In this document: positions 60,990 to 61,466 of the stretch, piece after piece
Numbering within the stretch: the first letter of the stretch is position 1
Layout: every line of letters begins with the position of its first letter
Source: Escherichia phage vB_EcoM_CRJP21
Length of the DNA stretch: 64,000 nucleotides
Strand: one strand, 5' to 3'
Sequence record: OQ708376.1
The notes under the pieces: generated by a model
The model's input: the letters and a program-made list of their open reading frames with translations, nothing else
The model's database searches: none
Told to the model about the DNA's origin: nothing
Translations under genes and position numbers: made by a program

Positions 60990-61466
60990 ATGATTCATGA
61001 ACACCGAGGTAATCTGTTTGAATTATTCAGTACTGTTACAGATGATAAAACAGCAATACATATAATTGCTCATGGTTGTAACGCACAGGGTAAAATGGGT
61101 TCAGGTTTTGCAAAAGAGCTAAGAAATCGTTACCCAATGGCATATGATGATTATAAAGCATATGAAAAGGAAATGGGATTTCTTAGAATTGGACAAATTG
61201 CATATTCAGCAATTAACGATAATTTGATTATTGCAAACTGTATTACCCAAAAAATGTACGGTAATGACGGTGCTAAATATGTCAGTTATGATGCAATCGA
61301 CGATGTGTTCAAACATCTAAATTATTTTTGTAAAGTTGATCGAGATGTTCATGTACACTTCCCGAAAATTGGAGCCGATTTGGGCGGCGGTAACTGGAAC
61401 GTTATCAAAGAAATCATTGATCACCGACTGGTCAATGCAGAAAAACACTTATACATTCTAAAATAA
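60990..61466 (+). CDS. macrodomain (ADP-ribose-binding/processing) protein
   Basis: IIAHGCNAQGKMGSGFAKELRNRYP and HFPKIGADLGGGNW fit macrodomain glycine-rich loops. Confidence 0.6.
   Translation: MIHEHRGNLFELFSTVTDDKTAIHIIAHGCNAQGKMGSGFAKELRNRYPMAYDDYKAYEKEMGFLRIGQIAYSAINDNLIIANCITQKMYGNDGAKYVSYDAIDDVFKHLNYFCKVDRDVHVHFPKIGADLGGGNWNVIKEIIDHRLVNAEKHLYILK

Follow-up and report, generated by a model that had tools for sequence, protein, structure and literature searches.

Jumbo coliphages of the genus Asteriusvirus carry a small gene for a macrodomain protein, which raises the question of what ADP-ribosylated substrate the product acts on, and whether it serves the phage against host immunity or in its own NAD and RNA metabolism. 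We examined this gene in a stretch of 64,000 nt from Escherichia phage vB_EcoM_CRJP21 (sequence record OQ708376.1), hereafter the window, to which all coordinates refer. The gene (60990-61466, plus strand) starts with ATG and codes for 158 aa plus the stop, lies inside a long co-directional gene run, and has a ribosome-binding site GGAG, as read from the sequence, 6 nt before the ATG (60980-60983, plus strand). The source phage is a 121Q-like Asteriusvirus, and the region 58500-63300 shares 99.9% identity with Escherichia phages SHEFM2K and phAPEC6 and 98.2% with 121Q. The 121Q orthologue, gp544, appears in RefSeq as a 'macro domain-containing protein', with the note 'Appr-1-p processing domain protein', and other records label the same ORF 'Macro domain protein' or 'phosphatase'. 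As a macrodomain gene it is already known and was annotated before; likewise, a counter-defence role of the family is already published for T4 and PhiKZ. Macrodomains are very common in phages, being present in 56% of jumbo phages (Iyer et al., 2022). Our literature search found no paper on the macrodomain gene in Asteriusvirus and none testing an Asteriusvirus against DarTG2; the paper on the Asteriusvirus Sharanji brings up DarTG1 only for a T7-like kinase and does not connect it with the macrodomain.

The deduced product matched the Pfam Macro profile (PF01661) over positions 2-116 of 118 with 16.4 bits (E 0.0092), which is below the gathering score of 22 bits; many of its relatives at 40-70% identity have a precomputed PF01661 match, and the sub-threshold score is a sensitivity issue and not evidence against a macro fold. 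The protein also matched PHROG 335 (1.1e-45) and, in phmmer comparisons with PDB sequences, BT1257 (7.9e-16), SCO6735 (7.9e-12), yeast Poa1p (8.6e-7) and Thermus DarG (2.3e-3). An AlphaFold2 model built with 66 homologues (pLDDT 95.2, pTM 0.91) displayed the three-layer alpha/beta/alpha macro fold, with the ADP-ribose cleft between two Gly-rich loops, and Foldseek retrieved BT1257 as the top structure in the PDB (TM 0.82), followed by SCO6735, Poa1p, DarG and TARG1. A preliminary description of this DNA had called a macrodomain from two glycine-rich stretches and had proposed structure prediction with Foldseek as a check; the call was correct at the levels of sequence and fold, the check returned a macrodomain, and the two stretches are found where they were read (NAQGKMGSGFA, residues 31-41; FPKIGADLGGG, residues 124-134). 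Judging from both sequence and predicted structure, the protein belongs to the ALC1/TARG1-like class of macrodomains. The sole meaningful match in the libraries of defence systems and of NCBI models was to the macro part of DarG (PADLOC DarG profile, 1.4e-10, positions 16-136 of 329; NCBIfam DarG model, 32.9 bits versus a cutoff of 250, positions 18-139 of 338).

In a family alignment of 67 sequences, reaching down to 27% identity, residues H28, G29, N31, G39, N83, Q87, G91, Y100, P125 and G128 are invariant. For the comparison with characterised relatives we aligned the PDB sequences from the HMMER output, and the TARG1 sequence was confirmed to be identical to 2LGR. Loop 1 (residues 28-41, HGCNAQGKMGSGFA; 61071-61112, plus strand) contains the invariant H28, which corresponds to SCO6735 H24, N31, which corresponds to SCO6735 N27 and DarG N22, and G39, as well as G29, which occupies the position of SCO6735 V25. 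The aligned segment comprising the end of the catalytic strand and the 'mobile loop' (residues 83-100, NCITQKMYGNDGAKYVSY; 61236-61289, plus strand) includes Q87, which aligns with TARG1 K84, Thermus DarG K80 and PhiKZ gp104 K78; Gln is also found at this position in SCO6735 (Q85), BT1257 and T4 Tk.4. The distance from Q87 to Y100 is 12 residues, versus 8 in TARG1 and T4 Tk.4 and 13-14 in SCO6735 and BT1257, and K96, within this loop, is kept in 60 of the 67 homologues. The phosphate-binding loop 2 (residues 124-136, FPKIGADLGGGNW; 61359-61397, plus strand) contains the invariant P125 and G128. The protein thus combines a Gln at the site of the catalytic Lys with the loop-1 Asn (Q87 and N31, both in 67/67 sequences), the loop-1 His, the phosphate-loop Gly (G128, equivalent to SCO6735 Gly126) and a mobile loop longer than those of DarG and TARG1, features that assign it, at the sequence level, to the 'Gln-type' subclass of SCO6735, BT1257 and T4 Tk.4.

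Mutagenesis of SCO6735 showed that Q85A and Q85E abolish activity, that N27S nearly abolishes it, that H24Y is inactive but misfolded, that G128E is strongly impaired, and that V25 acts via its backbone oxygen (PMC9411070). In our alignment, Q85, N27, H24, G128 and V25 correspond to Q87, N31, H28, D130 and G29, respectively; because the mutagenised residues map to kept residues, the catalytic core tested in SCO6735 is intact, D130 excepted. This Asp (codon 61377-61379) takes the place of a small Gly that is present in all the characterised relatives, T4 Tk.4, SCO6735, BT1257, DarG and TARG1. The motif IGADLGGGNW occurs in every relative with about 55% identity or more, and the Asp is fixed throughout the Asteriusvirus/Klebsiella jumbo-phage clade; the Xanthomonas XaC1 clade has Val at position 130, and IGAGL persists in more distant homologues, one of them an orthologue (P0054) in the same syntenic slot. 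Since D130 coincides with the position of an impaired mutant and the characterised relatives have Gly there, the protein might be less active on DNA, or its activity might have shifted. A clade-fixed Asp where a Gly-to-Glu change cripples the best-studied relative is the sole mildly surprising element of this protein; as a natural G-to-D variant of the phosphate loop, it offers an inexpensive way to probe what sets substrate specificity in the Gln-type mechanism.

The preliminary description had also placed the gene in one neighbourhood with Nudix and CCA-adding enzyme genes and had pointed to a Sir2 gene at 21.6 kb and to two Nudix genes as related functions. All of these genes are present at the expected positions. 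The Sir2 gene (21627-22385, plus strand; Pfam, 72.9 bits) lies 39 kb upstream of the macrodomain gene and overlaps by 4 nt a Nudt16-like Nudix gene (22382-22933, plus strand), the two looking like a co-translated pair. The viral sirtuin clade containing the phage Sir2 was predicted to take part in KptA-like, NAD-dependent RNA repair (Iyer et al., 2022), and genes for an RNA ligase (3321-4463), a PNK (5560-6492) and a calcineurin-like phosphoesterase (14239-15030) are found 7-18 kb upstream of Sir2. Closer to the macrodomain gene are those for an HPF/RaiA ribosome-hibernation homologue (56605-56937), a CCA-adding enzyme or tRNA nucleotidyltransferase (58537-59649, plus strand; annotated, with Pfam PolyA_pol and PolyA_pol_RNAbd domains), the second Nudix hydrolase (59758-60159, plus strand; Nudix box GKAEGNETFKEAAVRECFEETG) and a glutaredoxin (60161-60409). 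This translation-themed run (56605-60409) is conserved across the ~350-kb jumbo phages that infect E. coli, Klebsiella and Xanthomonas, and in XaC1 it has an additional YqeY-domain gene.

The gene order, lysozyme, HPF, CCA, Nudix, glutaredoxin, two small ORFs, Macro, two small ORFs, gp13 neck, dNMP kinase and sheath, is shared by Klebsiella jumbo phages (macrodomain protein 63% identical), Xanthomonas phage XaC1 (47%) and a metagenomic relative, all from the ~350-kb lineage. Elsewhere the neighbours are different: in T4 they are tk, vs and regB, Felix-O1-like and Barba phages have small early genes around the macrodomain gene, and an rV5-like phage has nrdD/G and a hydrolase. The linkage to Nudix and CCA is therefore inherited synteny and not evidence of a module, because the neighbours differ in unrelated lineages. 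A functional operon of macrodomain, Nudix and CCA genes was likewise unsupported, with this order confined to the ~350-kb lineage and a different one in T4, Felix-O1-like, Pakpuna, rV5-like, Barba and T5-like phages. Thus, of the neighbourhood in the preliminary description, the proximity of the genes stands but a functional module finds no support, the Sir2 gene being in addition 39 kb away.

The four small ORFs flanking the macrodomain gene lacked Pfam matches and matched only PHROGs of unknown function, and there is no darT gene next to it. One of them (61807-62184, 125 aa), two genes downstream, has orthologues in Klebsiella and Xanthomonas phages with a 'weak' precomputed match to PTH2 (peptidyl-tRNA hydrolase); the ORF in the window had no Pfam or PDB sequence match and belongs to PHROG 14786, of unknown function. 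The full RefSeq annotation of 121Q includes an RNA ligase, a PNK, a third Nudix and MazG, and lists no ADP-ribosyltransferase (ART), NADAR, Tpt1/KptA, 2H enzyme or NAD-salvage gene, although this is weak evidence given that most genes are 'hypothetical'. Within that limit, the proposal in the preliminary description that the protein processes products of phage ARTs found no counterpart in the annotation. In other phages, a macrodomain homologue from a Pakpunavirus (Pseudomonas phage vB_PaeM_B55, L008:969-4480) is directly downstream of NAD-reconstitution genes of the NARP1 type, annotated as PRPP-synthetase-like and NAMPT-like, which hints, for that lineage, at a role in ADP-ribose supply or clean-up. 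Additionally, a T5-like metagenomic contig of 127 kb (L019:5186-8500) contains a 45%-identical homologue ~1-2 kb from Gad2 (anti-Gabija), cpYpsA/SLOG and HD-domain genes, in what looks like a counter-defence island.

A bidirectional terminator-like hairpin (60949-60972), with a perfect 10-bp stem and a 4-nt loop (AAGGACTCTG-AACA-CAGAGTCCTT) and T-runs on both strands, lies 17 nt upstream of the macrodomain ATG. It is the strongest of five terminator-like sites found, versus 2.4 expected from shuffled sequences; a scan for sigma-70-like promoters remained at chance level (25 versus 24.4 expected). The position of the hairpin implies that the gene needs either read-through or an unrecognised phage promoter that would start a new unit.

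The explanation that we favor, with moderate confidence, is that the protein is a stand-alone and catalytically competent ADP-ribosyl (glyco)hydrolase of the Gln-type that would remove from single-stranded phage DNA the thymine-linked ADP-ribose made by a host DarT2, acting in counter-defence and, in effect, as an orphan antitoxin. A host toxin of the DarT2 type would ADP-ribosylate thymines in single-stranded phage DNA, blocking replication and transcription; the ADP-ribose would then be held between loop 1 (HGCNAQGKMGSGFA) and loop 2 (FPKIGADLGGGNW), with N31 locking Q87 in place at the distal ribose, a water molecule held by the backbone of loop 1 would break the N-glycosidic bond, so that ADP-ribose is set free and the base is restored. 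SCO6735 is more efficient than DarG and TARG1 at stripping DarT-made thymine-ADP-ribose from ssDNA, and it rescues both E. coli and S. coelicolor from the toxin (PMC9411070). In T4, a transposon screen on a DarTG2 host yielded Tk.4 as its only hit, and a clean tk.4 knockout sensitised the phage to DarTG2; the protein was named AdfM, for anti-DarT factor macrodomain, in a preprint whose evidence is purely genetic (bioRxiv 10.1101/2025.11.20.689424). PhiKZ gp104, independently named AdfM, removes DarT2-made ADP-ribose from DNA in vitro (PMC13309987). The reversal of host DarT-type immunity considered in the preliminary description agrees with what the nearest tested relatives, SCO6735 and T4 Tk.4, do; the nearest experimentally characterised relatives are only about 30% identical to the window protein.

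SCO6735 is a promiscuous enzyme, which also cleaves uracil-ADP-ribose on ssRNA (PMC13036486) and Glu/Asp-linked ADP-ribose on proteins, and is inactive on guanine-ADP-ribose and on 2'-OH RNA-ADP-ribose (PMC11833690). Other members of the same macrodomain class act on small molecules, Poa1p on ADP-ribose-1''-phosphate and TARG1 on O-acetyl-ADP-ribose, and most phage macrodomains were argued to target small ADP-ribose derivatives (Iyer et al., 2022). The sequence by itself does not specify the substrate, because SCO6735 is promiscuous and other class members take small molecules. The protein could accordingly be a small-molecule hydrolase in phage NAD/RNA metabolism, acting on O-acyl-ADP-ribose from the phage Sir2, or on ADP-ribose-1''-phosphate or ADPr>P from the proposed KptA-like NAD-dependent RNA repair, with the free ADP-ribose passing to the Nudix enzymes. 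We consider this possible but unlikely. The distant Sir2 gene belongs to a separate gene run, and the macrodomain clade, with 1,791 phage records, many of them T4-like, extends through T4-like, Felix-O1-like and Pakpuna phages without a visible link to Sir2, whose homologues amount to 974 phage records (T5-like including SP15, rV5-like and jumbo). Only two of the four catalytic residues of Poa1p are kept, and Tpt1/KptA and 2H enzymes are absent from the 121Q annotation. RNA repair of the T4 Pnkp/Rnl type is not known to generate ADP-ribose-1''-phosphate, which also counts against such a substrate.

The activity of SCO6735 on uracil-ADP-ribose and Glu/Asp-linked adducts would also fit another reading, a de-ADP-ribosylase for other macromolecules, be it base-modified RNA (uracil or other, in tRNA or mRNA), proteins ADP-ribosylated on Glu/Asp by another host ART, or whatever an unrecognised phage ART modifies, with D130 marking the shift from DNA. 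Three further points speak for it: the negative charge that D130 adds at a site where, in G128E, such a charge was argued to repel DNA; the many genes for translation and tRNA functions in the conserved jumbo-phage block (HPF, CCA, the YqeY of XaC1, the weak PTH2 matches); and the existence in E. coli of mRNA-ADP-ribosylating defences such as CmdTAC (PMC11618068). However, the adenine-ADP-ribose made by CmdT is described as irreversible so far, SCO6735 does not act on guanine or 2'-OH adducts, no phage ART is annotated in 121Q, the translation-gene neighbourhood is the inherited synteny of one lineage and is absent in others, and position 130 is still Gly in orthologues from the same slot, all of which make this reading possible but unlikely. 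A further reading, in which the fixed D130 is the mark of a substrate change from thymine-ADP-ribose DNA to an RNA/tRNA-linked or small-molecule adduct, with the translation/tRNA-repair block (HPF, CCA enzyme, Nudix) and possibly the Sir2-Nudix pair as partners in an undescribed NAD-linked RNA-repair or counter-defence pathway, seems to us improbable. Finally, the resemblance of D130 to the impairing G128E change could mean that the protein is a crippled enzyme or a non-catalytic ADP-ribose binder or sponge, sequestering ADP-ribose-derived immune signals or inhibiting a toxin by binding alone; some macrodomains just bind ADP-ribose, and the catalytically dead Q85A mutant of SCO6735 still inhibits DarT through interaction (PMC9411070). 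The invariant active site argues against it and we find this very improbable.

With this result, the 121Q/PBECO4-type coliphages of ~350 kb and their Klebsiella and Xanthomonas relatives join the phages likely armed against DarT2-type ADP-ribosylation of DNA, which helps to predict which DarTG2-positive E. coli (EPEC/STEC) fall within the host range of a therapeutic jumbo phage. The overall significance is modest, this being an ordinary enzyme, probably of counter-defence.

Among named systems, the window protein most resembles SCO6735 from Streptomyces coelicolor (PDB 5E3B) and BT1257 from Bacteroides thetaiotaomicron (PDB 2FG1/2AFC), which are Gln-type and ALC1/TARG1-like. It differs from them in that identity is only about 27%, in having G29 for V25/I and D130 for G128, in the strongly conserved signature of its own in the mobile loop, YGxDGxKYVSYD, and in being phage-encoded, whereas the cellular gene is induced by DNA damage. 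From human TARG1/OARD1 it is separated by the K84/D125 dyad, replaced here by Q87/G132. The catalytic set of Poa1p consists of His23, Asn26, Ser30 and Gly33 (as cited in PMC12846349); mapping these residues through a T4-Poa1p alignment and the columns of the family alignment, H28 and N31 are kept and Ser30 and Gly33 are replaced by K35 and S38, so that the set belonging to an ADP-ribose-1''-phosphate phosphatase of the Poa1p type is incomplete.

PhiKZ gp104 and DarG share with the window protein the macrodomain class and the conserved Asn (N23 and N22, respectively, equivalent to N31); gp104, a DarG2-like antitoxin of a chimallivirus, is, in addition, a stand-alone phage protein whose biochemical activity is the one proposed here. 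Both, however, are Lys-type, with an FPTK motif (K78 and K80) where the window protein has Q87. We rejected membership in DarG, given Q87 instead of Lys, the absence of the C-terminal DarT-binding domain of DarG from a protein of 158 aa, and the lack of the adjacent darT gene. Similarly, gp104 matches DarG from Mtb at 9.4e-25, its match to the window protein covers just 26 residues at 6e-6, and orthology to this AdfM was rejected from that short match and the different catalytic residue.

T4 Tk.4 is closer, as both proteins belong to PHROG 335 (Tk.4, 1.3e-65), are 30% identical (BLASTP E 2e-12), and are stand-alone Gln-type phage proteins of about 155 aa with the motifs HGCN...TQ...PxIGA. Unlike the window protein, Tk.4 has a mobile loop four residues shorter and the ancestral Gly at position 130, and its gene sits in the tk/vs/regB early region; its anti-DarTG2 function is genetic and for T4 only. 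The name AdfM was given twice independently, to PhiKZ gp104 (L003:17518-18006) and to T4 tk.4 (L002:6923-7390), and it spans two non-orthologous subclasses, the Lys-type, DarG-like gp104 and the Gln-type, BT1257/SCO6735-like Tk.4, with the protein from the window falling on the side of the latter.
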